A DNA stretch of 64,000 nt, taken from Escherichia coli. Lineage in GTDB: Bacteria; Pseudomonadota; Gammaproteobacteria; Enterobacterales; Enterobacteriaceae. The notes under the pieces were generated by a model. It saw only the letters and a program-made list of their open reading frames with translations. It ran no database searches and was not told the DNA's origin. The stretch is from assembly GCF_044324875.1 (NCBI RefSeq), contig NZ_CP172185.1; one strand, 5' to 3'. Position 1 is the first letter of the stretch. Each line of letters opens with the position of its first letter. Below are positions 18,517-64,000 of the stretch, one piece after another. The position numbers were made by a program, and so were the translations under genes.

Positions 18517-18661
18517 TCATCTTTAAATCAACATATTAAAATTCATCGAATGGCATCCTTGCTAACCAACAATACAAAATAGGCAAAAAAATGCCCGCCC
18601 CGGCGATCCCAGAGCAGGCAGACAAAACATACCCAGTTTCATGATATGTTTTAAAGCGAGC

Positions 18662-25830: not shown

Positions 25831-27036
25831 TTAGCGTAAGTTAACCAGCGTGTTGAGGATCTGGTCCTGGGTTTTGATGGTCTGGGCGTTAGACTGATAG
25901 TTACGCTGAGCAACGATCATATTGACCAGTTCTTTACTGAGATCGACGTTGGACGCTTCCAGCGCACCGTTGGTCAGGGTGCCAAAGTTGCCCGTCCCGG
26001 CTGTCCCTAACAGCGCCACGCCAGAAGATTGCGTAGCGGACCAGACGTTGTCGCCTTCGGATGCCAGACCTTCGTTGTTGGCAAAGTTCGCCAGTACAAT
26101 CTGCCCCAGCAGTTGGGTTTGTTCGTTGGAATAGTTGCCGACAACCGTACCGTCATCATTGATTTGATAACTCACCAGATCGCCCGGTTTGTAGCCGTTC
26201 TGGGTGGTTGCCACAATGTTGTTAGCACCGGTATTTTGCTGCATGGAGTTGAGGAAACTCAGGCTAAACGTGGCGGGATCTGCGCCGTTAATTGCGCCAG
26301 TGGAAATATTCGCTGTTGGATCTGAGGTCAGAACGCCATTGGCATTAAACACCAGTGTTGTCGCTGTCTTCGCAATGCTGTTTGGATCACTACTATCCTG
26401 GGTGTAGACCTGCCAGTTATTATCCCCGGTCTTCACAAAGTAGACGCTCATGTCATGAGCATTACCCTGACTATCGAAAACAGTCACCGAACCTTTTTTG
26501 TTATAGCTATCCGCATTGCTGGCATCAAATGCGTTAACAGAGGGAAGCGGATCACTGGAATTCAGGTTGATCTGCATCGACGCCGTGGTGGTAGTTTTCG
26601 CTGCCATCAGGGTATTCGGAATCGAAATATTGGTCGGATTCGCCCCTTGCTGAATAGTCGGCGGCGTACCGGTTGCCGGGTAACCCGTCAGCTGTAAACC
26701 TTGCATATTCACCAGGTTACGGTTTTCATCCAGCTTAAATTGTCCGTTACGGCTGTAGAACACCGAACCGTTGCTGTCTACCAGACGGAAAAAACCGTTC
26801 TGGCTGATAGCAACGTCCAGACCTCGCCCGGTGTTGGTAGTCGTGCCATCGGTAAAGTCCTGGGTGATACCGGCAACTTTTACCCCCAGTCCCACTTTCG
26901 AACCGGCAAACATATCGGCAAAAGAGGCCGTGCCTGATTTAAAGCCGTAGGTGGCGGAGTTGGCGATATTGTTGCCAATAACATCGAGGTTGGTGGCGGC
27001 AGCGTTTAATCCGCTAACCGCTTGAGAAAAGGCCAT
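25831..27036 (-). CDS. flgE: Flagellar hook protein
   Basis: 401-aa ORF, hook family termini. Confidence 0.96.
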   Translation of the reverse strand: MAFSQAVSGLNAAATNLDVIGNNIANSATYGFKSGTASFADMFAGSKVGLGVKVAGITQDFTDGTTTNTGRGLDVAISQNGFFRLVDSNGSVFYSRNGQFKLDENRNLVNMQGLQLTGYPATGTPPTIQQGANPTNISIPNTLMAAKTTTTASMQINLNSSDPLPSVNAFDASNADSYNKKGSVTVFDSQGNAHDMSVYFVKTGDNNWQVYTQDSSDPNSIAKTATTLVFNANGVLTSDPTANISTGAINGADPATFSLSFLNSMQQNTGANNIVATTQNGYKPGDLVSYQINDDGTVVGNYSNEQTQLLGQIVLANFANNEGLASEGDNVWSATQSSGVALLGTAGTGNFGTLTNGALEASNVDLSKELVNMIVAQRNYQSNAQTIKTQDQILNTLVNLR

Positions 27037-32805: not shown

Positions 32806-34048
<1,243 letters not shown>

Positions 34049-34283
34049 TCTATACCTACTCCTTCCCGTAACGTCTTTAATACGCTGTAAGTATTACTAT
34101 ACCTGCGCAACCAGACCCTGTGAAAAGTCCAGAATGCCATTTTCTGCATTATTCACATATTTGATAAAAACTCTCTATCAAAGCGACGTTTTGATAAAAA
34201 AATATTGTCCCCGAAGTGATGGGAAAAGTCTTAGCGGCAATGCAGAATAGAAAGTGCTCATCTTTTATTTCCCGGGAGGGGAA

Positions 34284-35492
34284 ATGTCCCGCGTGTCGCA
34301 GGCGAGGAACCTGGGTAAATATTTCCTGCTCATCGATAATATGCTGGTCGTGCTGGGGTTCTTTGTTGTCTTCCCGCTGATCTCTATCCGCTTCGTTGAT
34401 CAAATGGGCTGGGCCGCCGTCATGGTCGGTATTGCCCTCGGCCTACGCCAGTTTATTCAGCAAGGTCTGGGTATTTTCGGCGGAGCAATTGCCGACCGCT
34501 TTGGTGCCAAACCGATGATTGTTACCGGTATGCTGATGCGTGCCGCCGGATTCGCCACAATGGGTATCGCCCACGAACCGTGGCTACTGTGGTTTTCATG
34601 CCTGCTTTCGGGACTCGGCGGCACGTTGTTTGATCCGCCGCGTTCGGCGCTGGTGGTGAAATTAATCCGTCCACAGCAGCGTGGTCGTTTTTTCTCGCTG
34701 TTGATGATGCAGGACAGTGCCGGTGCGGTCATTGGCGCATTGTTGGGGAGCTGGCTGTTGCAATACGACTTTCGCCTGGTCTGCGCCACAGGGGCAGTTT
34801 TGTTTGTGCTGTGTGCAGCGTTCAATGCGTGGTTGTTACCGGCATGGAAACTCTCCACCGTACGCACGCCCGTTCGCGAAGGCATGACCCGCGTGATGCG
34901 CGACAAGCGTTTTGTCACCTATGTCCTGACGCTGGCGGGTTACTACATGCTGGCTGTACAAGTGATGCTGATGCTGCCAATTATGGTCAACGACGTGGCG
35001 GGCGCGCCCTCTGCCGTTAAATGGATGTATGCCATTGAAGCGTGTCTGTCGTTAACGTTGCTCTATCCTATCGCCCGCTGGAGTGAAAAGCATTTTCGTC
35101 TGGAACATCGGTTGATGGCTGGGCTGTTGATAATGTCATTAAGCATGATGCCAGTGGGCATGGTCAGCGGCCTGCAACAACTTTTCACCCTGATTTGTCT
35201 GTTTTATATCGGGTCGATCATTGCCGAGCCTGCGCGTGAAACCTTAAGTGCTTCGCTGGCAGACGCAAGAGCTCGCGGCAGCTATATGGGGTTTAGCCGT
35301 CTGGGTCTGGCGATTGGCGGCGCTATTGGTTATATCGGTGGCGGCTGGCTGTTTGACCTGGGCAAATCGGCGCACCAGCCAGAGCTTCCGTGGATGATGC
35401 TGGGCATTATTGGCATCTTCACTTTCCTTGCGCTGGGTTGGCAGTTTAGCCAGAAACGCGCCGCGCGTCGTTTGCTTGAACGCGACGCCTGA
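34284..35492 (+). CDS. mdtH: MFS multidrug efflux transporter
   Basis: ORF 34254..35492 trimmed to [13 protein letters not shown].. (402 aa) with RBS gggagggg upstream; 12-TM MFS profile. Confidence 0.93.
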
Positions 35493-35555
35493 TTTGATAC
35501 TCCCCCCTGACTCCTCCATACTGAAAGTGAACTGACAGCCAAATGGAGGAGTCAC

Positions 35556-36203
35556 GTGAAGCTATACATTTACGATCACTGCCCTTACTGCCTCAAAGCC
35601 CGCATGATTTTCGGCCTGAAAAATATCCCCGTCGAATTACATGTTCTGCTCAACGACGACGCAGAAACACCCACCCGGATGGTCGGTCAAAAACAGGTTC
35701 CCATTCTGCAAAAAGATGACAGCCGCTATATGCCAGAAAGCATGGACATCGTTCACTATGTCGATAAACTCGACGGCAAACCGTTACTGACCGGCAAACG
35801 TTCCCCTGCCATTGAAGAGTGGCTGCGCAAGGTCAATGGCTACGCCAACAAACTGCTGTTGCCGCGTTTTGCCAAATCGGCATTTGATGAGTTTTCTACT
35901 CCCGCCGCGCGCAAATATTTCGTCGACAAGAAAGAGGCCAGCGCGGGTAATTTTGCCGACCTGCTGGCCCACTCTGACGGTCTGATTAAGAATATCAGCG
36001 ATGATTTACGTGCGCTGGACAAACTGATCGTCAAACCGAACGCCGTGAATGGCGAACTTTCGGAAGATGATATTCAGCTATTTCCGCTCCTGCGTAATCT
36101 GACGCTGGTAGCCGGAATCAACTGGCCAAGCCGCGTTGCTGATTACCGCGATAATATGGCGAAACAGACACAAATCAATTTGTTATCATCAATGGCGATT
36201 TAA
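35556..36203 (+). CDS. grxB: Glutaredoxin 2
   Basis: 215-aa ORF with CPYC active site. Confidence 0.96.
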   Translation: MKLYIYDHCPYCLKARMIFGLKNIPVELHVLLNDDAETPTRMVGQKQVPILQKDDSRYMPESMDIVHYVDKLDGKPLLTGKRSPAIEEWLRKVNGYANKLLLPRFAKSAFDEFSTPAARKYFVDKKEASAGNFADLLAHSDGLIKNISDDLRALDKLIVKPNAVNGELSEDDIQLFPLLRNLTLVAGINWPSRVADYRDNMAKQTQINLLSSMAI

Positions 36204-36336
36204 TCCTGACCCGCCGCGGCAGCCTGTATTCGCGGGTTGCCGCCGTTTTCAGTTTTTTCTGCTGGCGCGTTTATCGCTGGTGACACATGCTGCGTTGTGT
36301 CAGGATATTGACGCAGATTTCATGTCGAGGACTACC

Positions 36337-36897
36337 ATGAACAAGTTTTTATTTGCCGCTGCATTGATCGTCAGTGGCCTGCTCGTTGGCTGTAATCAAC
36401 TCACCCAATACACCATCACCGAACAAGAAATTAACCAGTCGCTTGCGAAACATAATAATTTCTCAAAAGATATCGGTTTACCCGGCGTGGCTGACGCCCA
36501 TATTGTTCTGACAAACCTGACCAGCCAAATTGGTCGCGAAGAGCCGAATAAGGTTACCCTAACCGGAGACGCCAATCTGGACATGAACTCCCTGTTCGGT
36601 AGCCAGAAAGCGACCATGAAACTGAAGCTGAAAGCGCTGCCCGTGTTTGATAAAGAAAAAGGTGCGATCTTCCTGAAAGAGATGGAAGTGGTCGATGCGA
36701 CGGTACAACCGGAAAAAATGCAAACGGTGATGCAAACGTTGCTCCCCTATTTGAACCAGGCATTACGCAATTACTTTAACCAGCAACCAGCTTACGTCCT
36801 GCGCGAAGATGGCAGCCAGGGCGAAGCAATGGCGAAGAAACTGGCGAAAGGCATTGAAGTGAAGCCAGGCGAAATTGTCATTCCGTTTACTGATTAA
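36337..36897 (+). CDS. yceB: DUF1439 lipoprotein YceB
   Basis: ORF 36136..36897 trimmed to MNKFLFAAALIVSGLLVGC.. (186 aa); lipobox LVGC. Confidence 0.9.
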   Translation: MNKFLFAAALIVSGLLVGCNQLTQYTITEQEINQSLAKHNNFSKDIGLPGVADAHIVLTNLTSQIGREEPNKVTLTGDANLDMNSLFGSQKATMKLKLKALPVFDKEKGAIFLKEMEVVDATVQPEKMQTVMQTLLPYLNQALRNYFNQQPAYVLREDGSQGEAMAKKLAKGIEVKPGEIVIPFTD

Positions 36898-36901
36898 TCA
36901 C

Positions 36902-36928
36902 GAGGGCGCATTCGCGCCCTTTATTTTT
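36902..36928 (+). terminator. Rho-independent terminator of yceB
   Basis: Hairpin gagggcgc-attc-gcgccct followed by TTTATTTTT. Confidence 0.6.
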
Positions 36929-36935
36929 CGTGCAA

Positions 36936-36951
36936 AGGAAAACGTTTCCGC
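36936..36951 (+). promoter_or_regulatory. PurR operator in pyrC promoter
   Basis: aggaaaacgtttccgc, palindromic around AAACGTTT, matching the PurR box consensus, about 55 nt upstream of pyrC. Confidence 0.6.
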
Positions 36952-37002
36952 TTATCCTTTGTGTCCGGCAAAAACATCCCTTCAGCCGGAGCATAGAGAT
37001 TA

Positions 37003-38049
37003 ATGACTGCACCATCCCAGGTATTAAAGATCCGCCGCCCAGACGACTGGCACCTTCACCTCCGCGATGGCGACATGTTAAAAACTGTCGTGCCGTATAC
37101 CAGCGAAATTTATGGACGGGCTATCGTAATGCCCAATCTGGCTCCGCCCGTGACCACCGTTGAGGCTGCCGTGGCTTATCGCCAGCGTATTCTTGACGCC
37201 GTACCTGCCGGGCACGATTTCAGCCCGCTGATGACCTGTTATTTGACAGATTCACTAGACCCTAATGAGCTTGAGCGTGGATTTAACGAAGGCGTGTTCA
37301 CCGCTGCCAAACTTTACCCGGCAAACGCAACCACTAACTCCAGTCACGGCGTGACGTCAGTTGACGCAATCATGCCGGTACTTGAGCGCATGGAAAAAAT
37401 CGGTATGCCGTTACTGGTGCATGGTGAAGTGACACATGCAGATATCGACATTTTTGATCGTGAAGCGCGCTTTATTGAAAGCGTGATGGAACCGCTGCGC
37501 CAGCGCCTGACTGCGCTGAAAGTCGTTTTTGAGCACATCACCACCAAAGATGCTGCCGACTATGTCCGTAACGGAAATGAACGGCTGGCTGCCACCATCA
37601 CTCCGCAGCATCTGATGTTTAACCGCAACCATATGCTGGTTGGTGGCGTGCGTCCACACCTGTATTGTCTACCCATCCTCAAACGCAATATTCACCAACA
37701 GGCACTGCGTGAACTGGTCGCCAGCGGTTTTAATCGCGTATTCCTCGGTACGGATTCTGCGCCGCATGCACGTCATCGCAAAGAGAGCAGCTGCGGCTGC
37801 GCGGGCTGCTTCAACGCCCCCACCGCGCTGGGCAGTTACGCTACCGTCTTTGAAGAGATGAATGCTCTGCAGCACTTTGAAGCATTCTGTTCTGTAAACG
37901 GCCCGCAGTTCTATGGCTTGCCGGTCAACGACACATTCATCGAACTGGTCCGCGAAGAGCAACAGGTTGCTGAAAGCATCGCATTGACTGATGACACACT
38001 GGTGCCATTCCTCGCCGGGGAAACGGTACGCTGGTCCGTTAAACAATAA
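37003..38049 (+). CDS. pyrC: Dihydroorotase
   Basis: 348-aa ORF with DxHLHLRD metal-binding N-terminus. Confidence 0.97.
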
Positions 38050-38085
38050 AAATCCTAGCTTCCTGTTGTCATTAGGTTATTTTAC

Positions 38086-38101
38086 CTGTATAAATAACCA
38101 G
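38086..38101 (+). promoter_or_regulatory. LexA (SOS) box of dinI promoter
   Basis: CTGTATAAATAACCAG matches CTGT-N8-ACAG-type SOS box, 22 nt upstream of dinI ATG. Confidence 0.75.
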
Positions 38102-38122
38102 TATATTCAACAGGGGGCTATT

Positions 38123-38368
38123 ATGCGAATTGAAGTCACCATAGCGAAAACTTCTCCATTGCCAGCTGGGGCTATTGACGCCCTGGCTGGCGAACTTTCC
38201 CGCCGTATTCAGTATGCGTTTCCTGATAATGAAGGCCACGTATCGGTACGTTATGCCGCAGCGAATAATTTATCGGTTATTGGCGCAACAAAAGAAGATA
38301 AACAGCGCATTAGCGAAATTCTCCAGGAAACGTGGGAAAGCGCCGATGACTGGTTTGTCAGCGAATAA
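38123..38368 (+). CDS. dinI: DNA damage-inducible protein I
   Basis: 81-aa ORF (MRIEVTIAKT..DDWFVSE) inside ORF-track entry 37991..38368; preceded by LexA box. Confidence 0.93.
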   Translation: MRIEVTIAKTSPLPAGAIDALAGELSRRIQYAFPDNEGHVSVRYAAANNLSVIGATKEDKQRISEILQETWESADDWFVSE

Positions 38369-38657
38369 TATGCAGTGATTTTTGTTTTTGCCGGGTCGCC
38401 CCGGCTTTTTTATTTTACTTACAAATTTTGAGTACAAAATTTCTACACTTCCTCAAAATAATTGCACAATATGCTAAAAAAATATGAATGACATGCTGTT
38501 TTATTGTTCATATAAATCTTAAAAGCAGAAATTTATCTGTTCCCCCCTTTAAAAATTCGGTGAATACCCTTACTTATTGGTATACTGAAGTTGCTTCAGA
38601 TAAAAACGCATTGAACCTCGAATAACGTTGTCTAGTAACACGAATTAGGGGGCCATG

Positions 38658-38912
38658 ATGGAAAAAAATAATGAAGTCATTCAGACTCATCCGCTCGTAG
38701 GGTGGGACATCAGCACCGTTGATAGCTATGATGCGCTGATGTTGCGTTTGCACTACCAGACCCCAAATAAGTCCGAGCAGGAAGGGACTGAAGTTGGTCA
38801 GACGCTCTGGTTAACCACTGATGTTGCCAGACAATTTATTTCGATATTAGAAGCAGGAATCGCCAAAATTGAATCCGGTGATTTCCCGGTAAACGAGTAT
38901 CGGCGTCATTAA
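38658..38912 (+). CDS. bssS: Biofilm regulator BssS
   Basis: 84-aa ORF (MEKNNEVIQTHPLVGWD..). Confidence 0.9.
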   Translation: MEKNNEVIQTHPLVGWDISTVDSYDALMLRLHYQTPNKSEQEGTEVGQTLWLTTDVARQFISILEAGIAKIESGDFPVNEYRRH

Positions 38913-39026
38913 CATGACATGACCATCCACCCAAAAGGCACCTCACCGGTGCCTTTACCATTTCTGGGTTGTATATCTGCATTCAGTTAATTACTCTGCT
39001 TAAACCATGAGAGCAGAGAGAAAAAA

Positions 39027-40145
39027 ATGAAATACGATCTCATCATTATTGGCAGCGGTTCCGTAGGCGCTGCCGCCGGGTATTATGCAACCCGTGCCGG
39101 TTTAAACGTGCTAATGACCGACGCCCATATGCCACCACATCAACACGGCAGCCACCACGGCGATACGCGATTAATTCGCCATGCTTATGGTGAAGGCGAA
39201 AAGTATGTCCCGCTGGTTCTCCGCGCGCAAACGCTGTGGGATGAACTCTCCCGCCACAACGAAGAAGATCCCATTTTTGTACGCTCTGGCGTCATTAACC
39301 TTGGCCCGGCTGATTCCACATTTCTCGCCAACGTCGCCCACAGCGCCGAACAATGGCAACTCAACGTTGAAAAGCTCGATGCGCAAGGGATTATGGCCCG
39401 CTGGCCGGAAATACGCGTCCCGGACAACTACATCGGCTTATTTGAGACTGATTCCGGTTTTTTGCGCAGCGAACTGGCGATTAAAACCTGGATCCAACTG
39501 GCGAAGGAAGCGGGCTGTGCGCAGCTGTTCAACTGCCCGGTCACCGCAATTCGTCATGACGATGATGGCGTAACTATTGAAACGGCTGACGGTGATTATC
39601 AGGCGAAAAAAGCGATTGTCTGCGCGGGAACATGGGTAAAAGACCTGCTCCCGGAGCTGCCTGTCCAGCCCGTACGCAAAGTATTTGCCTGGTATCAGGC
39701 CGATGGTCGCTATAGCGTGAAGAATAAATTCCCGGCGTTTACCGGTGAACTGCCCAATGGCGATCAATATTATGGTTTTCCGGCAGAAAACGACGCGTTG
39801 AAGATTGGCAAACATAACGGAGGCCAGGTTATCCATTCAGCGGATGAACGTGTTCCGTTTGCGGAAGTGGTCAGCGATGGTTCGGAAGCCTTCCCGTTCT
39901 TGCGCAATGTATTGCCGGGTATCGGTTGCTGCCTGTACGGCGCTGCCTGCACCTATGATAATTCGCCTGACGAAGATTTTATTATCGATACCCTACCCGA
40001 CCACGATAATACACTGCTCATTACCGGCCTGAGTGGGCACGGTTTTAAATTTGCGTCAGTTTTAGGGGAAATAGCTGCCGATTTTGCGCAAGACAAAAAA
40101 AGCGATTTTGATTTGACGCCATTCAGGCTTTCCCGCTTCCAATAA
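39027..40145 (+). CDS. solA: N-methyl-L-tryptophan oxidase
   Basis: 372-aa ORF with FAD dinucleotide-binding motif [12 protein letters not shown]. Confidence 0.96.
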
Positions 40146-40192
40146 TCATCATTACGGCCTCCAGAATGAGGCCGTTTTTACAGGAGTATTTA

Positions 40193-40306
40193 ATGCGTCG
40201 GCTGTTGCACTATCTCATCAATAATATTCGCGAGCATCTGATGCTTTATCTTTTTCTCTGGGGATTGTTGGCAATTATGGATCTGATCTATGTGTTTTAT
40301 TTTTAG
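40193..40306 (+). CDS. yceO: Small hydrophobic protein YceO
   Basis: 37-codon ORF read by hand ([37 protein letters not shown]), below ORF-track cutoff; position solA-yceJ matches K-12 yceO. Confidence 0.5.
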
Positions 40307-40566
40307 TTTTCCGCACTGACATAAACTGACAAATATTTAATCTCCCTTTCATTTAGCGTGAAAAATTGAATGAGATTATTCCTGCTTCTACAGCACTCAC
40401 CAGACATCTCTGATGCTGAACCCACTAAACTTATGAAGATTCTTTCATTATTAATTCAAAATTATTGAAATAAAAATAAATATCATTCAATTTGTTATTT
40501 TTGTGTTGCAATTCATTCTCCGACACGCCATTTTCTTTCTCTCGCAAATTCGTTTTGGATGCACTT

Positions 40567-41133
40567 ATGTCATTCACAAATACCCCTGAACGCTATGGTG
40601 TTATATCTGCGGCCTTCCATTGGCTAAGCGCAATTATTGTCTACGGCATGTTTGCTTTAGGTCTGTGGATGGTCACGCTCAGTTATTACGATGGCTGGTA
40701 TCACAAAGCACCCGAACTGCATAAAAGCATCGGTATTTTGTTAATGATGGGGCTGGTTATTCGCGTTCTGTGGCGCGTCATATCTCCACCGCCGGGTCCG
40801 CTGCAGAGTTATTCGCCCATGACTCGTCTTGGCGCAAAGGCTGGACATCTCGCATTGTACTTATTGCTGTTCGCCATCGGCATCAGCGGCTATCTGATCT
40901 CAACTGCCGATGGTAAACCGATCAGCGTTTTTGGCTGGTTTGACGTCCCCGCGACCCTCGCCGACGCTGGCGCACAGGCTGACTTCGCCGGTGCCCTGCA
41001 TTTTTGGCTCGCGTGGAACGTCGTAGTACTGTCCGTTATGCATGGATTTATGGCCCTGAAGCATCATTTCATCGATAAAGACGACACTCTGAAGCGCATG
41101 CTGGGAAAGTCGTCATCTGACTATGGAGTATAA
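40567..41133 (+). CDS. yceJ: Cytochrome b561 family protein
   Basis: ORF 40492..41133 trimmed to MSFTNTPERYGVISAAFHWL.. (188 aa); 4-TM di-heme His pattern. Confidence 0.92.
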   Translation: MSFTNTPERYGVISAAFHWLSAIIVYGMFALGLWMVTLSYYDGWYHKAPELHKSIGILLMMGLVIRVLWRVISPPPGPLQSYSPMTRLGAKAGHLALYLLLFAIGISGYLISTADGKPISVFGWFDVPATLADAGAQADFAGALHFWLAWNVVVLSVMHGFMALKHHFIDKDDTLKRMLGKSSSDYGV

Positions 41134-41136
41134 AAA

Positions 41137-41712
41137 ATGAAAAAAAGCCTGCTTGGTTTAACCTTCGCTTCCCTGATGTTCTCTGCCGGTTCAGCGGTTG
41201 CCGCCGATTACAAAATTGACAAAGAAGGTCAGCACGCCTTTGTTAACTTTCGCATCCAGCATCTTGGCTATAGCTGGTTATATGGCACCTTTAAAGATTT
41301 CGACGGTACTTTTACCTTTGATGAAAAAAATCCGGCTGCCGATAAAGTGAATGTGACAATTAACACCACCAGCGTCGATACTAATCACGCCGAACGCGAT
41401 AAACATCTTCGCAGTGCAGATTTCCTCAATACTGCAAAATATCCACTGGCAACATTCACCTCCACCAGCGTGAAGAAAGACGGTGACGACCTGGATATTA
41501 CCGGCGATCTGACGCTGAATGGCGTAACCAAACCCGTCACGCTGGAAGCGAAATTAATTGGTCAAGGCGACGACCCGTGGGGTGGTAAACGTGCAGGCTT
41601 CGAGGCCGAAGGCAAAATTAAGCTCAAGGACTTCAATATCAAAACAGATTTAGGTCCAGCTTCTCAGGAAGTGGATCTGATTATTTCAGTGGAAGGCGTA
41701 CAGCAGAAGTAA
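41137..41712 (+). CDS. yceI: Periplasmic YceI-family polyisoprenoid-binding protein
   Basis: 191-aa ORF with signal peptide. Confidence 0.94.
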
Positions 41713-41753
41713 GCGTGAAATGTTGCCGGATGGCACGCATCCGGCAATGATAT

Positions 41754-42806
41754 TTATTCTGTTGGATCAGGAATGCCCAGTGTTGTATTCAGACGTCCAC
41801 GAGACTTATTAAAGATCTTATTGCCATTTTCACGTCCTGCCCGACGGCGTCGCTGTTCTTCAGGCGGTAACGCGCTTTCTTCGCAGCAAATCTCACTACA
41901 ACAACCTTTGTATTTTTCCGCACATACTGGACACTGAATAAAAAGCAGGTGGCAGCCATCATTTTTACAGTTGGTATGGCTGTCGCACGGCGCACCGCAC
42001 TGGTGGCAATGCGCGATAATCTCATCAGATATACGTTCGCCCATCCGCTCGTCAAAAACAAAATTTTTGCCAATAAAACGTACCGGTAAACCCTGCTCGC
42101 GCGCCTTGCGGGCGTATTCAATAATTCCGCCCTCGATATGCCAGACTTTATTGAATCCGTTATGTTTCATCCAGGCACTGGCTTTTTCACAACGAATGCC
42201 GCCGGTGCAGTACATGACGATTTTTTTATCTTTATGTGCCTGCATCATCTCGACTGCTTTTGGCAACTGCTCACGGAAGGTATCTGCCGGAATTTCCAGC
42301 GCGTTTTCAAAGTGCCCCACTTCATACTCATAGTGGTTACGCATGTCGATAAACAATGCATCGGGATCGTCAAGCATGGCGTTCACTTCCGCCGCTTGCA
42401 GATACTCACCCACATTGCTGGCATCGAAGTGAGGATCGTCAATACCGTCGGCAACGATACGATCACGGACCTTCATGCGCAGTACCCAGAAGGATTTCCC
42501 GTCATCATCCAACGCGATATTCAGGCGTAAGCCCTCTAAAGCCGGGTCGAAGGCATAAAGCTGCGCGCGAAATGTTTCAACATTGCTCGCAGGTACGCTG
42601 ATTTGCGCGTTAATGCCCTCATGCGCCAGATACACTCGCCCAAAAACATCCAGCGCGGTAAACAGCTGATATAAAGCGTCACGGGTCGCCTTAGGATCGG
42701 CGATGTGGAAATACTTGTAAAACGAAATGGTGGTTCGCGGTTCGCTCTCAGCCAACATTTTGGCTTTTAACGCGTCGTTGGAAATGCGGTTGTGTAACAC
42801 TGGCAT
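41754..42806 (-). CDS. trhO: tRNA uridine(34) hydroxylase (rhodanese-domain protein YceA)
   Basis: ORF 41754..42860 trimmed to [10 protein letters not shown].. (350 aa); rhodanese active-site Cys (CTGGIRCEK) and C-terminal Cys-rich tail. Confidence 0.92.
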
Positions 42807-43030
42807 GGTGTACGGTTCCTGCGAGATGGGAAAGTAAAAATCCGCGGCATGATATAGCAATTATCGATAATTAACATCCACACATTTTACGCTACATTTG
42901 CGCATTAAAAATTATTTGTTATTTACAAGCGCGGCAATTTCGCCCAGTCTTCAGCCACAAATTTTGGTTGCGGGCGAAAAAATGCGACAATACATACAAT
43001 TGCCCGTATAGGTTGAAAAACAGGATTGAT

Positions 43031-43951
43031 ATGACGAATCTACCCAAGTTCTCCACCGCACTGCTTCATCCGCGTTATTGGTTAACCTGGTTGGGTATTG
43101 GCGTACTTTGGTTAGTCGTGCAATTGCCCTACCCGGTTATCTACCGCCTCGGTTGTGGATTAGGAAAACTGGCGTTACGTTTTATGAAACGACGCGCAAA
43201 AATTGTGCATCGCAACCTGGAACTGTGCTTCCCGGAAATGAGCGAACAAGAACGCCGTAAAATGGTGGTGAAGAATTTCGAATCCGTTGGCATGGGACTG
43301 ATGGAAACTGGCATGGCGTGGTTCTGGCCGGACCGCAGAATAGCCCGCTGGACGGAAGTGATCGGCATGGAACACATTCGTGACGTGCAGGCGCAAAAAC
43401 GCGGCATCCTGTTAGTTGGCATCCATTTTCTGACACTGGAGCTGGGTGCGCGGCAGTTTGGTATGCAGGAACCGGGGATTGGCGTTTACCGCCCGAACGA
43501 TAATCCACTGATTGACTGGCTACAAACCTGGGGCCGTTTGCGCTCAAATAAATCGATGCTCGACCGCAAAGATTTAAAAGGCATGATTAAAGCCCTGAAA
43601 AAAGGCGAAGTGGTCTGGTACGCACCGGATCATGATTACGGCCCGCGCTCAAGCGTTTTCGTCCCGTTGTTTGCCGTTGAGCAGGCTGCGACCACGACCG
43701 GAACCTGGATGCTGGCACGGATGTCCGGCGCATGTCTGGTGCCCTTCGTTCCACGCCGTAAGCCAGATGGCAAAGGGTATCAGTTGATTATGCTGCCGCC
43801 AGAGTGTTCTCCGCCGCTGGATGATGCCGAAACCACCGCCGCGTGGATGAACAAAGTGGTCGAAAAATGCATCATGATGGCACCAGAGCAGTATATGTGG
43901 TTACACCGTCGCTTTAAAACACGCCCGGAAGGCGTTCCTTCACGCTATTAA
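43031..43951 (+). CDS. lpxL: Lipid A lauroyl acyltransferase
   Basis: ORF 42968..43951 trimmed to [17 protein letters not shown].. (306 aa); LpxL/HtrB family. Confidence 0.95.
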
Positions 43952-44122
43952 ATCTCCCATGCCGGATGCTTCAGAAGGGTATCCGGCATTACCACAGCAA
44001 ATCCCCCTGATTTAGCGATAAAAGCTCTCTGGATTGCGCCCCCTGGAAGTCGGGCGCATAATTAGTGTGCTTATCTTTTCTTCTTATGTTCACCGCGCCT
44101 GGCGCACCAACAGCGGATTGCT

Positions 44123-45326
44123 ATGTCACCCTGTGAAAATGACACCCCTATAAACTGGAAACGAAACCTGATCGTCGCCTGGCTAGGCTGTTTTCTTACG
44201 GGTGCCGCCTTCAGCCTGGTAATGCCCTTCTTACCCCTCTACGTTGAGCAGCTTGGCGTTACGGGCCACTCCGCCTTGAATATGTGGTCCGGTATTGTCT
44301 TCAGCATTACATTTTTATTTTCGGCCATCGCCTCACCGTTTTGGGGTGGACTCGCCGACCGTAAAGGCCGAAAACTCATGCTATTACGCTCTGCCCTCGG
44401 CATGGGCATCGTGATGGTGTTGGCAGTTTTTGATCCTACGGGCGCTTCTTGGGTTACTTGGCGGATTTGTCCCCAACGCTAATGCTCTTATCGCCACACA
44501 AGTACCACGTAATAAAAGCGGCTGGGCGCTGGGGACGCTTTCCACAGGCGGCGTTAGCGGTGCGTTGCTCGGCCCAATGGCTGGCGGTTTGCTTGCCGAT
44601 AGCTACGGCTTACGTCCGGTATTCTTTATTACCGCCAGTGTGCTCATACTCTGCTTTTTCGTCACCCTGTTTTGCATCAGAGAAAAATTCCAGCCGGTCA
44701 GCAAAAAAGAGATGCTGCACATGCGGGAAGTGGTGACATCACTTAAAAAACCGAAACTGGTACTCAGCCTGTTTGTCACTACGTTAATCATCCAGGTGGC
44801 GACGGGCTCAATTGCCCCCATTCTGACGCTGTATGTCCGCGAACTGGCGGGTAACGTCAGTAACGTCGCCTTTATCAGTGGCATGATCGCCTCGGTGCCA
44901 GGCGTGGCGGCTCTGCTGAGTGCACCACGACTCGGCAAACTTGGCGATCGAATCGGACCCGAAAAGATCCTGATTACGGCGCTGATCTTTTCTGTACTGC
45001 TATTGATCCCAATGTCTTACGTTCAGACGCCATTACAACTTGGGATTTTACGTTTTTTGCTCGGTGCCGCCGATGGTGCACTACTCCCCGCCGTACAGAC
45101 ACTGTTGGTTTACAACTCGAGCAACCAAATCGCCGGGCGTATCTTCAGCTATAACCAGTCGTTTCGTGATATTGGAAACGTTACCGGACCATTGATGGGA
45201 GCCGCGATTTCAGCGAACTACGGTTTCAGAGCGGTATTTCTCGTCACCGCTGGCGTAGTGTTATTCAACGCAGTCTATTCATGGAACAGTCTACGTCGTC
45301 GTCGAATACCCCAGGTATCGAACTGA
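44123..45326 (+). pseudogene. mdtG: MFS efflux transporter MdtG, disrupted by a frameshift (apparent ~23-nt deletion near 44422/44423)
   Basis: Two ORF-track entries in different frames (44123..44482 and 44430..45326) together match one MFS transporter; first frame ends at TAA 44480..44482 after 19 out-of-frame codons; span of 1204 nt is not a multiple of 3. Confidence 0.85.
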
Positions 45327-45408
45327 TTTTTCGCCTTTCATACTTGCAAAAGCGGAGAATCAGCTATCCTTTTCCCTGAAACCTCATCAACTCAAAGGGA
45401 GAATCGTG

Positions 45409-45783
45409 ATGACCATGTACGCAACGCTTGAAGAAGCCATTGACGCTGCACGCGAAGAATTTCTTGCAGACAACCCCGGCATCGACGCCGAAGATGCGAA
45501 TGTGCAACAGTTCAATGCCCAAAAATACGTTTTGCAGGACGGCGACATCATGTGGCAAGTTGAGTTTTTTGCCGACGAAGGGGAAGAAGGTGAATGTTTA
45601 CCTATGCTTAGCGGTGAAGCCGCGCAAAGTGTCTTTGATGGCGACTATGATGAGATAGAGATCCGCCAGGAGTGGCAGGAAGAGAATACATTACATGAAT
45701 GGGACGAGGGGGAATTTCAGCTTGAGCCACCGCTGGATACCGAGGAAGGACGCGCAGCAGCTGATGAGTGGGATGAACGTTAA
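45409..45783 (+). CDS. msyB: Acidic protein MsyB
   Basis: 124-aa highly acidic ORF (MTMYATLEEAIDAAREEF..). Confidence 0.93.
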   Translation: MTMYATLEEAIDAAREEFLADNPGIDAEDANVQQFNAQKYVLQDGDIMWQVEFFADEGEEGECLPMLSGEAAQSVFDGDYDEIEIRQEWQEENTLHEWDEGEFQLEPPLDTEEGRAAADEWDER

Positions 45784-46183: not shown

Positions 46184-50366
<4,183 letters not shown>

Positions 50367-50648
50367 TCAGCACGCTGGCTCATGGATTAAGCACCTGATT
50401 GCAACCGTTTTCACTTTCCGTGCTTCTCCTAAAGACAGAAGCATCGACTTCGTGTAGGGTTTGCCAGCAAATTTATTTATCAACCGTCTTACAGACGCTT
50501 CCATTCTGGTTAGTGGTAGCGATGATGCTATGCATAAAAACCTTGAAGCCTGCGCCTGGCGCGGTCAGGTCGGTGTCGCTATGGCAACAAGCCTAAAGGC
50601 ATAACCCGACAGGGATAAGACGAAAAATCCGAGATTAGTTAACCATAT

Positions 50649-51806
50649 ATGAACCCAGTACCCGCGCAACGTGAATATTTCCTCGACTCCATCCGCGCCT
50701 GGCTGATGTTGTTAGGGATCCCTTTTCATATTTCTTTAATCTATTCGAGCCATACATGGCATGTGAATAGCGCCGAACCGTCATTGTGGCTGACCCTTTT
50801 TAATGACTTCATCCACTCGTTCCGCATGCAGGTATTTTTCGTTATATCCGGGTACTTTTCCTACATGCTTTTTTTACGCTATCCCTTGAAAAAATGGTGG
50901 AAAGTACGTGTCGAACGTGTAGGTATCCCGATGTTAACAGCCATCCCCCTACTGACATTACCGCAATTTATTATGCTGCAATACGTCAAAGGGAAAGCGG
51001 AAAGTTGGCCTGGCCTGTCATTGTATGACAAATATAATACGTTGGCCTGGGAATTAATATCACACCTGTGGTTTTTACTGGTGTTAGTAGTCATGACGAC
51101 GCTGTGCGTATGGATATTTAAACGCATCAGAAATAATTTAGAAAATTCTGATAAAACGAATAAAAAATTCTCGATGGTAAAACTATCGGTGATTTTTTTG
51201 TGCCTCGGCATCGGCTATGCGGTAATAAGAAGAACGATTTTTATTGTGTATCCGCCCATTCTGAGTAACGGCATGTTCAATTTTATTGTCATGCAAACGC
51301 TATTTTATTTGCCGTTCTTTATCCTCGGCGCACTGGCTTTCATTTTCCCTCATCTTAAAACCTTGTTTACCACGCCGTCTCGTGGCTGTACCCTTGCAGC
51401 AGCATTGGCATTTGTCGCTTACTTACTCAACCAGCGCTATGGCAGTGGCGATGCCTGGATGTACGAAACCGAGTCGGTGATCACCATGGTCCTCGGTCTG
51501 TGGATGGTGAATGTGGTCTTCTCCTTCGGCCACCGTTTGCTTAACTTCCAGTCAGCGCGGGTGACTTACTTTGTTAATGCATCGCTGTTTATCTATCTGG
51601 TTCACCACCCGTTAACGCTGTTTTTCGGCGCGTACATTACACCGCACATCACATCCAACTGGCTTGGTTTTCTCTGTGGCCTGATATTCGTAGTAGGGAT
51701 TGCGATAATTCTGTATGAAATTCATTTACGCATCCCGTTACTGAAGTTTTTGTTCTCTGGTAAACCGGTTGTTAAGCGTGAGAACGATAAAGCACCAGCC
51801 CGTTAA
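50649..51806 (+). CDS. opgC: Glucan succinyltransferase, membrane acyltransferase family
   Basis: 385-aa polytopic ORF divergent from opgGH. Confidence 0.92.
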
Positions 51807-51813
51807 GCCGCGT

Positions 51814-53244
51814 TTATAATAACCATTCCATGGGCAATATCGATGCCAGTCTGACCATAACCCGCTTCCAGAAACTGGTGGCGGGTTCTTTTTTGAGAAC
51901 AATTTCTTTCTTTGCATGACGATCAACCCAGTTGATCCGTCCCCACCTGTCCAGACGGAGCTGCCAGGCCGCATCATACTGGCTCTGAATAAAGCGTTTA
52001 TCAATTAACTGTGCCAGCGTTTCGCTCTCTATCACGAACCCCATTTCAGTATTGAGCAATGTCGAACGCGGATCGAAATTGAAAGAGCCGATAAACACCG
52101 TTTTACCATCGATGCTAAAGGTTTTAGCATGCAGGCTGGCACCGGAATTACCGGTTATGCCGCGATCGTGTAACGTACTACTTTGTTCACGCGTCGGCTT
52201 GAGTTCATATAATTCCACGCCGTAGCGGAGCAATTTTTTGCGCCAGCGCGCGTATCCGGCATGGACGACAGCAACATCGTTAGCGGCAAGAGAATTGGTT
52301 AGGATCGCAATCTTTACCCCTTTTCTCACCATCCGTAAGAGTTGCGCCACACCTGCGCGTGTCGGTACAAAATAGGAAGAGATAATATCGATGCGTTCAC
52401 TGGGTGAGCCCATGATATCGAACAGGCGCTGCGGTAACAGTGAATGCCGTTTTGCCTTGCCCTCCCCTTTCGCCGGATCATCACTTAATAAACGTGTTTT
52501 CGCCCAGATAAGCGGCAACGTTCCATCAACCAGATGATTTATAAACGGGCTGGATTCCATTTTGCGTAAATAACGATGCGTCATGGCATCGTTGTGCCAG
52601 GATGCTGGTAACTCGATGCGATCCGCCATTTCACCTTCCGGGACATCCAGCACCTGCTGTAGGGGTGAAACCGATTTGCAATACCAGTAGCGGGCGAAAT
52701 CATCGGCAACGTCCTCTACAACTGGTCCTATTGCCATGACATCTAAATCCGAAAAAAGTGGCTCTTCCCCTGCCCCAAAATAGGCATCACCAATATTTCG
52801 TCCTCCCACCAGGGTAACCACGCCATCAACAGTGAAACTTTTATTGTGCATACGGCGATTGAGACGGGAAAAGTCGGTGATATAACCAAGCGGACGTAGC
52901 AAGCGAAACGAGAAAGGATTAAAAAGCCGGACTTCAATGCGGGGATGACTGTCAAGCAAGCGTAAAATGTCGTCAAGTCCGGGTGTATTGTTGTCGTCCA
53001 GCAACAAACGGACGCGAACGCCACGCTTTGCTGCGGCTAACAGGGCGGAAAACAGTAACCGACCCGACATATCGTCCTGCCAGATGTAATACTGAACATC
53101 CAGCGTATGCTCTGCCATTTCGGCCAGACGATACCGGGCGGCAAACGCATCCAGACTTTTCTCCAGAGGAAAAAGGCCACACTGACCGGGATGTTGCGAA
53201 CACAGTGGCAGCACCGCGCTCGCCAGCCGGGGCAAATCATTCAT
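51814..53244 (-). CDS. clsC: Cardiolipin synthase C (PLD superfamily)
   Basis: ORF 51814..53304 with two HxK(x4)D PLD motifs (HNKSFTVDG and HAKTFSIDG); start chosen at internal Met (MNDLPRL) and is uncertain. Confidence 0.88.
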
Positions 53245-53770
53245 CTCCTTGTTGAGTAAGGAGTCTTTCGTAGAGGTGGGCGTTTTCTTCATCATAACAG
53301 ACAAAGTATACCTGTTCGGGTAAAGCGTGACGGGTAATAAATTCTGAAACGGTTTTTACTGCGATTTCAGCCGCTGCCGCACGAGGGTAACCATAAACTC
53401 CAGTACTGATTGCAGGAAAAGCCACTGACGTATAGCTGTTTGCTGCCACCAGTCGCAGGCTATTGAGATAGGCATCCTGCAAAAGCTGGTCTTCGTTTTG
53501 TTCACCACCACGCCAGACTGGCCCGACGGTGTGCACTACGGCTTTCGCAGGAAGATCGCCTGCAAGCGTAATAACGGCATGCCCCGTAGGGCAATCGCCC
53601 TGCTGCTGCCTGACTTTTAAACAGGCATCCAGCAGGGCCGGACCCGCTGCGCGATGAATGGCCCCATCGACGCCGCCGCCTCCCATTAATGACGGATTAG
53701 CCGCATTCACAATCACATCAACGGCCAGTTTGGTAATATCACCCTGCACAACATGAATACGCGTTTTCAT
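53237..53770 (-). CDS. ymdB: Macro-domain O-acetyl-ADP-ribose deacetylase
   Basis: 177-aa ORF with macro-domain fold motifs ([15 protein letters not shown]). Confidence 0.94.
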
Positions 53771-61940: not shown

Positions 61941-62028
61941 GGTGAGGTGTCCGAGTGGCTGAAGGAGCACGCCTGGAAAGTGTGTATACGGCAACGTATC
62001 GGGGGTTCGAATCCCCCCCTCACCGCCA
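61941..62028 (+). tRNA. serX: tRNA-Ser (anticodon GGA)
   Basis: 88-nt sequence GGTGAGGTGTCCGAGTGGCTGAAGGAGCACGCCTGGAAAGTGTGTATACGGCAACGTATCGGGGGTTCGAATCCCCCCCTCACCGCCA with long variable arm and encoded CCA. Confidence 0.97.
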
Positions 62029-62036
62029 GATATTGA

Positions 62037-62069
62037 GCGCATGTTATTGTTTAACATGCGCTTTTTTTT
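62037..62069 (+). terminator. Rho-independent terminator of serX
   Basis: Hairpin gcgcatgtta-ttgtt-taacatgcgc followed by T8. Confidence 0.8.
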
Positions 62070-62180
62070 ATTTTTCCTTCCAGGCAGTATGCCACAGGGT
62101 ATGCCATCTGAAACCGGTTTGTATGAGCCTCGATCACATCTTATCAGACAATTTCCGATCTTTGAGCATACAGGGCAAAG

Positions 62181-63023
62181 CTATACTGCCAGCATGTCAG
62201 GATAGTGTCTGACGATAATATCATTCAGTCTGTCAACCAGTTCCGGTTTCCTGAACGTGATATGCGCGGAGCCTTTCCTGAAGTATCTGATGCTGAACAT
62301 CTCATCCTCATAGCATGCTTCACCCTGAACGGACCGGATGTGCTCATCCAGACGAATGAGGATATTGTCCCGGTCAGTGGGTATGGGTTTACCGCTGAAC
62401 AGATACAGTATCCTTTCCAGGTCGGCAAGCCGCCCGGCCTGCGGACCATGGTTCAGACCAAATCCCCACCAGTCCCATTTCACCAGGTTGTTGAGGATAA
62501 TCTTACTGCCGAATTTACAGGGTGACCCGCTGTTGTGCGTCCGGCTCAGTCCTCTGAAGAGGTTGATGACGCCCCGTTCAGCCATTTCATCCCTGTTACG
62601 GTGCAGTTGTTCAGACGTACTCAGGATATTCGCTTCGCTGATTTCCGGAAAATTATCCTCCTCCAGTGAACGGTACCATTCATCACGCGCCTGTGCATCC
62701 ATCAGACTCAGCATCCCGGAGCGTTGCATCAGGTCACGCCAGATTTCACGGTCAAGGTTCCGGGTGATGGCTTTCATTGCGGTTTCCGGTTTTTCCATCA
62801 GCCAGCAGCCACAGCGAAAATCCTGTTTCACGGCCCAGTCCCGGGCCGTTTTACCTCCGATGCTTTCTGTCATTACTGAGATTTCTGCCAGTTGCCGGAT
62901 AAGCCTTTCGGTTTGTTGCAGTGCTTCATTCCGTACCGTCACAACGTGCCGGATACTGGTTGAGCAGATAACGTCCGTATGTCCGTTAAGCGTTTCCGGA
63001 CGGGAGACTGTGATATCAGACAT
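62181..63023 (-). CDS. Uncharacterised island protein, DUF4942-like
   Basis: 280-aa ORF; family assignment from memory of proteins found downstream of cbtA in CP4-type islands, not from a search. Confidence 0.7.
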   Translation of the reverse strand: MSDITVSRPETLNGHTDVICSTSIRHVVTVRNEALQQTERLIRQLAEISVMTESIGGKTARDWAVKQDFRCGCWLMEKPETAMKAITRNLDREIWRDLMQRSGMLSLMDAQARDEWYRSLEEDNFPEISEANILSTSEQLHRNRDEMAERGVINLFRGLSRTHNSGSPCKFGSKIILNNLVKWDWWGFGLNHGPQAGRLADLERILYLFSGKPIPTDRDNILIRLDEHIRSVQGEACYEDEMFSIRYFRKGSAHITFRKPELVDRLNDIIVRHYPDMLAV

Positions 63024-63119
63024 AACCGATATTCCTTTTTGCAGATAAATGAAAACGCCAGCCGTATTCGGACTGGCGTCAGTGGAATGAATCGTGGTGA
63101 GTGAGATGATGAGTGAGAC

Positions 63120-63317
63120 TCACAGGTTCTGGTGCTGAAGCTGCAGCTGGCGCAGGGTGCGGATATCCTCCCTGGCCTGTTCGATACAGGGCAACAGTGC
63201 TGCCGAATCCGTTTTATCCTCATCGTTGTCGAAGATAATGCAGGAGCCGCAGTCGATATTGTCCTGCAGCCACGCAATCAGAATATCCGGTGCTGTTTCT
63301 GTGGTTAATGATTTCAT
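63120..63317 (-). CDS. Small uncharacterised island protein (65 aa) with CxxC motif
   Basis: 3' portion of ORF-track entry 63120..63704, starting at internal Met (MKSLTTETAPDILIAWLQDNIDCGSC..), 20 nt downstream of the preceding gene stop; upstream part of that ORF overlaps the better-supported gene in another frame. Confidence 0.5.
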   Translation of the reverse strand: MKSLTTETAPDILIAWLQDNIDCGSCIIFDNDEDKTDSAALLPCIEQAREDIRTLRQLQLQHQNL

Positions 63318-63336
63318 ACGGTGTCTTTTGTCCCGG

Positions 63337-63825
63337 TTACCAGTCGAAAGTGGGAAAACCCGGCAGACATTCAGCGCCGGCATCCAGATGAATGAGACTG
63401 ACGCCATAACGCCGGATGAGAGTGACAACCAGACGACGAAACGTTTTTGACAGACCCAGGCGTTTAAGCCGCAGAGCCGGGTACGACCACGCATCAGTAC
63501 GTAACAGATATCCGCTGCCTGTAAAATGAATCCATTCTGATTCGCCGTTGTCATTCGTCTGATGCGACAGCGAGTACAGCCAGGCATTGTCCTGCTCCGT
63601 GATATGTGCGGTACTGCAGCGTATGCCGGTAAGGGCCGCAAATGGTGGCATGCAGTCTGCTGAGGTCCGGTCAGATTCATCAGCAACACGAAGGGAACAG
63701 CCATTATCGCAGACCACGTTAATCAGTTCAGCGAGATTAACACCATCGACGTCAGCGACAATGCGCCCCATGTTCAGTGCCTGTACGTTAACGCTGTCGG
63801 CTTCCAGTGTCAGGGACAGTTTCAT
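63337..63825 (-). CDS. Uncharacterised protein downstream of cbtA (YeeW-like position)
   Basis: 162-aa ORF whose ATG overlaps the cbtA stop in an ATGA junction, implying translational coupling with the toxin gene. Confidence 0.75.
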   Translation of the reverse strand: MKLSLTLEADSVNVQALNMGRIVADVDGVNLAELINVVCDNGCSLRVADESDRTSADCMPPFAALTGIRCSTAHITEQDNAWLYSLSHQTNDNGESEWIHFTGSGYLLRTDAWSYPALRLKRLGLSKTFRRLVVTLIRRYGVSLIHLDAGAECLPGFPTFDW

Positions 63826-64000
63826 GGTTTCACCTCACAGTGTTTACCCAGGGTGATGTTGTTCACCATTCTGTAGTGGCTGCGGGTCATCAGGCCGGTC
63901 GCCCGGCGGGCCCGGAGAATATCAATGCTGCTGATTAACTGCGATGAAGCTCCTGCGCTGAATCCCGGCTGGTCGGTACGCACCAGCGCGTATTTTTCCA
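63822..64000 (-). CDS. cbtA: Type IV toxin-antitoxin system toxin, CbtA/YeeV family, 3' end only (gene starts beyond window)
   Basis: Hand translation of reverse strand gives ..EKYALVRTDQPGFSAGASSQLISSIDILRARRATGLMTRSHYRMVNNITLGKHCEVKP-stop, closely matching the C-terminus of YeeV/CbtA-family toxins. Confidence 0.85.
   Translation of the reverse strand, partial: EKYALVRTDQPGFSAGASSQLISSIDILRARRATGLMTRSHYRMVNNITLGKHCEVKP

Follow-up and report, generated by a model that had tools for sequence, protein, structure and literature searches.

A 23-nt deletion splits mdtG in one Escherichia coli clone: a probable recent null allele of an accessory efflux pump

Overexpression of mdtG (yceE) reportedly raises fosfomycin and deoxycholate tolerance, a finding ascribed to Nishino and Yamaguchi in 2001. 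The closest described counterpart of the locus considered here is the intact mdtG gene of E. coli 042 (EC042_RS05900 / WP_000074163.1), which is 1227 nt long (408 aa plus stop) and whose product scores 899.4 bits over positions 1–408 of NF007372, the NCBIfam equivalog model for MdtG (a 408-position profile with a cutoff of 571 bits). The closest relative with a solved structure is NorA of S. aureus (PDB 7LO7), a 12-TM DHA1-type MFS drug/H+ antiporter; it is a distant relative that aligns over MdtG residues 14–389 (E 9e-18), and we used this alignment solely to place the deletion described below at the TM3/TM4 boundary, not to claim membership.

Several natural losses of the gene are on record. 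S. flexneri M90T has no yceE at all (PMC6393483). S. sonnei (e.g. 53G, HE616528.1) retains a copy that is homologous to mdtG only from nt 181 onward and is preceded by resolvase, IS110 and IS21 genes; its 323-aa remnant appears in 2,230 blocks of the collection. In the S. sonnei loci that we compared (L007–L009), mdtG is disrupted at approximately codon 60 and an IS4 transposase lies between yceK and mdoH; IS4 is also annotated within the matches of two complete E. coli genomes, CH4796 and PCP06238, to the same 24-kb region. Furthermore, the presence of mdtG in clinical isolates is unlinked to the fosfomycin MIC (PMC11019110). Given the loss in S. flexneri M90T, the disruption in S. sonnei and the lack of a link to the fosfomycin MIC, mdtG appears to be dispensable in nature. 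Another natural truncation of E. coli mdtG is the allele P0008 (WP_257896640.1, 125 aa), with a left breakpoint at mdtG nt 316/317.

The window analyzed here, a 64,000-nt stretch of E. coli contig NZ_CP172185.1 (assembly GCF_044324875.1), is like E. coli 042 in its mdtG locus, in the region upstream of the gene and in the sequence of the gene outside a single gap. The order lpxL-mdtG-msyB-yceK-mdoH is conserved around the split gene, and the lpxL-mdtG intergenic region (43952..44122, plus strand), which holds the native mdtG upstream and putative promoter sequence, is the same as in 042. Situated between lpxL and msyB and, apart from the gap, 100% identical to the 042 allele, the locus is orthologous to mdtG. 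The window copy differs in lacking 23 nt and hence in having no single 408-aa product: it is an mdtG pseudogene of 1204 nt (44123..45326, plus strand) that reads as two ORFs, which overlap at 44430–44482 in two different frames. ORF1 (44123..44482, plus strand; 119 aa) consists of MdtG residues 1–100 (TM1–TM3), ending in GMGIVMVL, followed by a tail of 19 out-of-frame residues and a TAA at 44480–44482; a motif-A-like stretch can be read directly from its sequence. ORF2 (44430..45326, plus strand; 298 aa) consists of MdtG residues 111–408 (TM4–TM12), and the TTG that would serve as its start is the native Leu111 codon.

On the NF007372 model, ORF1 reaches 221.9 bits over positions 1–101, which is below the 571-bit cutoff, and ORF2 reaches 635.7 bits, which is above the cutoff but covers positions 111–408 only. 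Because they match positions 1–101 and 111–408 of one model, the two ORFs can be recognized as the two halves of one MdtG; no single product of the window spans the 408 positions of the full profile. The DHA1 12-TM fold of the MFS is likewise incomplete, as residues 101–108 are missing and TM4–TM12 are out of frame with the start. What the locus does show is an indel of 23 nt, a length not divisible by 3, that is reproduced on ~55 independent contigs, as is expected of a frameshifted pseudogene.

Aligned with mdtG of E. coli 042, the window copy has an identical 300-nt prefix and an identical 906-nt suffix, the 23-nt gap being the sole difference. Owing to a 2-nt microhomology (TG), this gap has three equivalent placements (reference nt 299–321, 300–322 or 301–323), and the junction (44420..44423, plus strand) falls between window 44420/21 and 44422/23. 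The letters that are found in intact alleles and are absent from the window are TGATGGGGCTGGCACAAAATATC or its two equivalent registers. Their absence removes codons 101–108 (MGLAQNIW) and shifts the frame; judged by hydropathy, MGLAQNIW is the end of the third hydrophobic segment plus the short loop before the fourth, that is, the TM3/TM4 boundary. The deletion is an exact alignment result and not a statistical signal, and chance is not at issue. When window 44050–45400 was compared by megablast with 5,426 complete RefSeq E. coli genomes, the best matches to this 1351-nt query extended over 1374 nt with 98.3% identity, which amounts to one 23-nt gap and nothing else, and in 5,415 of the 5,426 genomes the match was to annotated mdtG and covered at least 80% of the 1.35-kb query. 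A first-pass annotation, made from the letters and a list of ORFs, had already described the two overlapping ORFs in different frames, with residues that the ORF list bears out, and had assigned both to one MFS efflux transporter, in agreement with the two NF007372 matches. The length that it gave for the intact gene (408 codons, 1227 nt) and the 23-nt loss that it derived from it agree with E. coli 042 mdtG; its estimate of the junction, 44422/44423, is the rightmost of the three equivalent placements; the short hydrophobic segment that it thought missing is MGLAQNIW, residues 101–108; and the alignment to a reference mdtG that it proposed has located the indel exactly.

An exact-sequence look-up (NCBI, ENA, Logan) returned the exact 119-aa product on 56 contigs and the exact 298-aa product on 55, and the two halves are deposited in GenBank as SRB23337.1 and SRB23339.1, each labeled E. 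coli MdtG. Three carrier loci were compared with the window, two from NCBI assemblies (GCA_958308375.1 and GCA_900482385.1) and one SRA-derived (SRR21141407). In all three the two ORFs are adjacent, and identity to the window is 99.985%, 99.995% and 100% over 20.4, 18.3 and 12.0 kb, respectively, figures that cover these three loci and leave out 21 further similar places. As only 0–3 positions per 12–20 kb differ from the window, the carriers appear to form one tight clone. Among the 5,426 complete E. coli genomes, a 44-nt junction-only query, each half of which falls short of the 28 nt that megablast needs as a seed, had no match (an 80-nt query was uninformative, because each of its 40-nt halves matches intact genomes separately), and the exact junction had no match in the GTDB species-representative genomes either. 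The best complete E. coli genome is 99.3% identical over window 32–56 kb and 99.6% identical over 56–64 kb, which indicates that the lineage has no closed RefSeq representative. On the near-identity of its carriers and its absence elsewhere, rather than on an ST or phylogroup marker (the window holds none), we consider the deletion to be clone-specific.

Several observations bear on the age of the deletion. One SNP (at 43342) and the deletion are all that separates the window from E. coli 042 over 33575–45492, against ~1% difference in the flanks, and between 43342 and 45493 the deletion is the sole difference. Since ~12 kb thus differs from 042 by a single SNP, the deletion appears to have arisen on a common, otherwise unmutated mdtG allele; relative to 042, neither half of the gene has acquired additional mutations. 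A pseudogene so free of further decay points to a recent event. The ~12-kb near-identical tract itself (33575–45492, rimJ/mdtH through mdtG) is bordered by flanks with 10–56 differences per 2 kb, a mosaic pattern that suggests a recombination tract in common with the 042 lineage.

The MdoH allele was tried as a lineage marker for finding relatives with intact mdtG. The sole long contig obtained in this way had the split gene, and most short-read MdoH contigs end in a REP element just after mdoH, so that the status of mdtG is unreadable there. These contig ends beside mdoH were also considered as possible IS insertions, a candidate that was ruled out, as they consist of REP sequence and Nextera adapter. 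One data set, SRR11658302, has exactly the MdoH protein allele of the window, yet differs at ~50 positions across mdoG-mdoC-clsC (window 49746–53636). Because of this difference, recombination has probably made the MdoH allele common to several lineages, and it does not mark the clone cleanly.

The mdtG deletion is the only frame-breaking CDS indel in the ~62 kb of the window that are collinear with E. coli 042. The other coding-sequence indels in these ~62 kb are a short, highly divergent patch in flgE (26302–26534), where several compensating 1–2-nt indels give a net change of -3 nt and the gene stays open, and an in-frame +3-nt (CCA) insertion in csgA (55058), which likewise stays open; two intergenic 1-nt differences occur as well. 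Two larger segments of 042 have no counterpart in the window: the IS1397 copy that 042 has between rluC and yceF (window 13702–13705), and the GNAT/DUF1778 toxin-antitoxin-like gene pair that it has between flgL and rne (window 18519–18586). In one carrier, GCA_900482385.1, a contig (L003:1-126) joins the window at position 36158, abutting the 3' end of grxB (35556..36203). The joined 126 nt resemble IS1 terminal sequence, which would mark an isolate-specific IS1 insertion that is missing from the window. At the right end of the window (62028–64000), collinearity with 042 stops just past ghrA and the position of tRNA-Ser in 042; the counterpart of this segment in other E. coli is annotated with a DUF4942-domain protein, and the segment probably marks the border of a tRNA-associated island.

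Either replication slippage or illegitimate recombination could account for a 23-nt microdeletion with 2 nt of microhomology, and we propose that a recent illegitimate or slippage-type event, involving only these 2 nt, gave rise to the allele. A nearby direct repeat, CTGGCA, was not used; it would have produced a 14-nt loss. The event removed codons 101–108 (the periplasmic end of TM3 and the TM3–TM4 loop) and shifted the frame. Translation from the native start would yield 119 aa, in which three transmembrane segments are followed by a nonsense tail of 19 residues, and the nine remaining segments (residues 111–408) would have neither a ribosome-binding site nor a proper start codon. From 44415 onward the native frame is open, and its first possible start is the TTG at 44430; no ATG or GTG occurs in the ORF2 frame before 44577, and upstream of the 44430 TTG there is a weak complementarity to the anti-SD sequence that does not exceed what internal codons show. 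A restored frame would still leave MdtG without the end of TM3. Judging from this topology and from the missing ORF2 start codon and ribosome-binding site, the allele is most likely an mdtG null allele, and the predicted outcome is an ordinary pseudogene. Programmed frameshifting or recoding was considered as a source of the overlap and rejected, as the overlap at 44430–44482 is a mere product of the deletion and other E. coli have a single frame; no RNA element was detected by Rfam on either strand at the site, and the sequence there shows neither a long homopolymer nor a known slippery heptamer.

The first-pass annotation had left a choice between genuine loss and assembly error, and the latter, with an intact mdtG in the true genome behind an assembly or sequencing artefact, deserves to be weighed first. 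Separate NCBI- and SRA-derived assemblies carry both ORFs, so that the junction is reproduced by independent read sets: the identical junction, and hence the identical frameshifted proteins, occur on ~55 contigs from independent projects. The window assembly is also not noisy, having no other frame-breaking CDS indel in ~62 kb. The site is unique rather than repeated sequence, and a loss of 23 nt is atypical of homopolymer-type sequencing error. With sister assemblies carrying the junction and the window otherwise clean, an assembly error is very unlikely, and we give scarcely any credence to an intact gene in the source genome; it is these ~55 contigs in independent assemblies, rather than a read pileup of the source genome, that favor a genuine allele. 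The comparison with relatives that the first-pass annotation had proposed likewise indicates a lineage-specific allele, its junction being found in 0 of the 5,426 complete E. coli genomes. If the deletion is real, the split gene could still encode a working pump. MFS permeases cut in loops, such as LacY, can complement as two fragments, and by analogy the 119-aa N-terminal fragment and a separately initiated 298-aa C-terminal fragment might reassemble. ORF2 offers an uninterrupted 298-aa frame covering TM4–TM12 with a possible TTG start at 44430, it alone reaches 635.7 bits on the MdtG model, and neither half is further mutated, although the recency of the deletion accounts for that equally well. 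However, the end of TM3 has lost eight native residues, residues 109–110 are missing from both products, and ORF1 carries the 19-aa nonsense tail; the start of ORF2 would have to be the native Leu111 TTG, with a weak anti-SD match and no ATG or GTG before 44577, and ORF2 would start 50 nt before ORF1 stops, a poor geometry for translational coupling. A functional two-fragment transporter is for these reasons highly improbable.

It may also be asked whether inactivation of mdtG was selected in the window clone, in parallel with Shigella lineages. The same accessory pump gene has been inactivated independently in S. flexneri (PMC6393483) and S. sonnei, as in the window clone, and the deletion is common to all sampled members of that clone. 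The P0008 allele, moreover, carries another deletion, the left breakpoint of which falls within the 23 nt missing from the window. Unlike the window deletion, that of P0008 can be reconstructed as a loss of 954 nt (L001:3390-4343) that begins at mdtG nt 317 and extends 43 nt beyond the stop; the two deletions are independent, and the occurrence of their endpoints in the same 23 nt could be either coincidence or a local breakpoint hotspot. The Shigella events, in contrast, are a whole-gene loss and a mobile-element-linked disruption, whereas the window has a clean 23-nt microdeletion in a region without an IS element. Drift and IS expansion strip many genes from Shigella, so parallel loss is expected for dispensable genes; in 5,415 of 5,426 complete E. 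coli genomes a match extends over at least 80% of the 1.35-kb query that contains mdtG; and the full-length flagellar and curli ORFs nearby indicate that the genome of the window is not generally decaying. We therefore regard it as very improbable that inactivation was positively selected in certain host-associated E. coli and Shigella lineages (the window clone, S. flexneri and S. sonnei) or, in a weaker variant, that codons 100–108 are a deletion hotspot. The reading that we hold with high confidence is that of a genuine, recent, one-clone 23-nt deletion that has probably made mdtG a null allele and an ordinary pseudogene, with a presumed loss of function that would be neutral.

Two practical points follow from the allele. 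As ORF2 passes the NCBIfam cutoff and both halves have been deposited as MdtG, ORF-based AMR or resistome callers may report mdtG as present, or even as two copies, where the pump is probably not made. A CARD-RGI-based survey lists 'mdtG x2' in 2 of 46 E. coli isolates (PMC11019110, Table 2); it is speculative, but these calls could stem from a split mdtG read as two ORFs. The 44-nt junction, which occurs in 0 of 5,426 complete E. coli genomes, provides a clean clone-specific marker. As to its biology, the split has turned the gene of a well-known accessory pump into an ordinary, recent frameshift pseudogene. Its consequence for E. coli is likely to be small, MdtG being one of ~20 drug pumps of this organism, non-essential and overshadowed by AcrAB-TolC.
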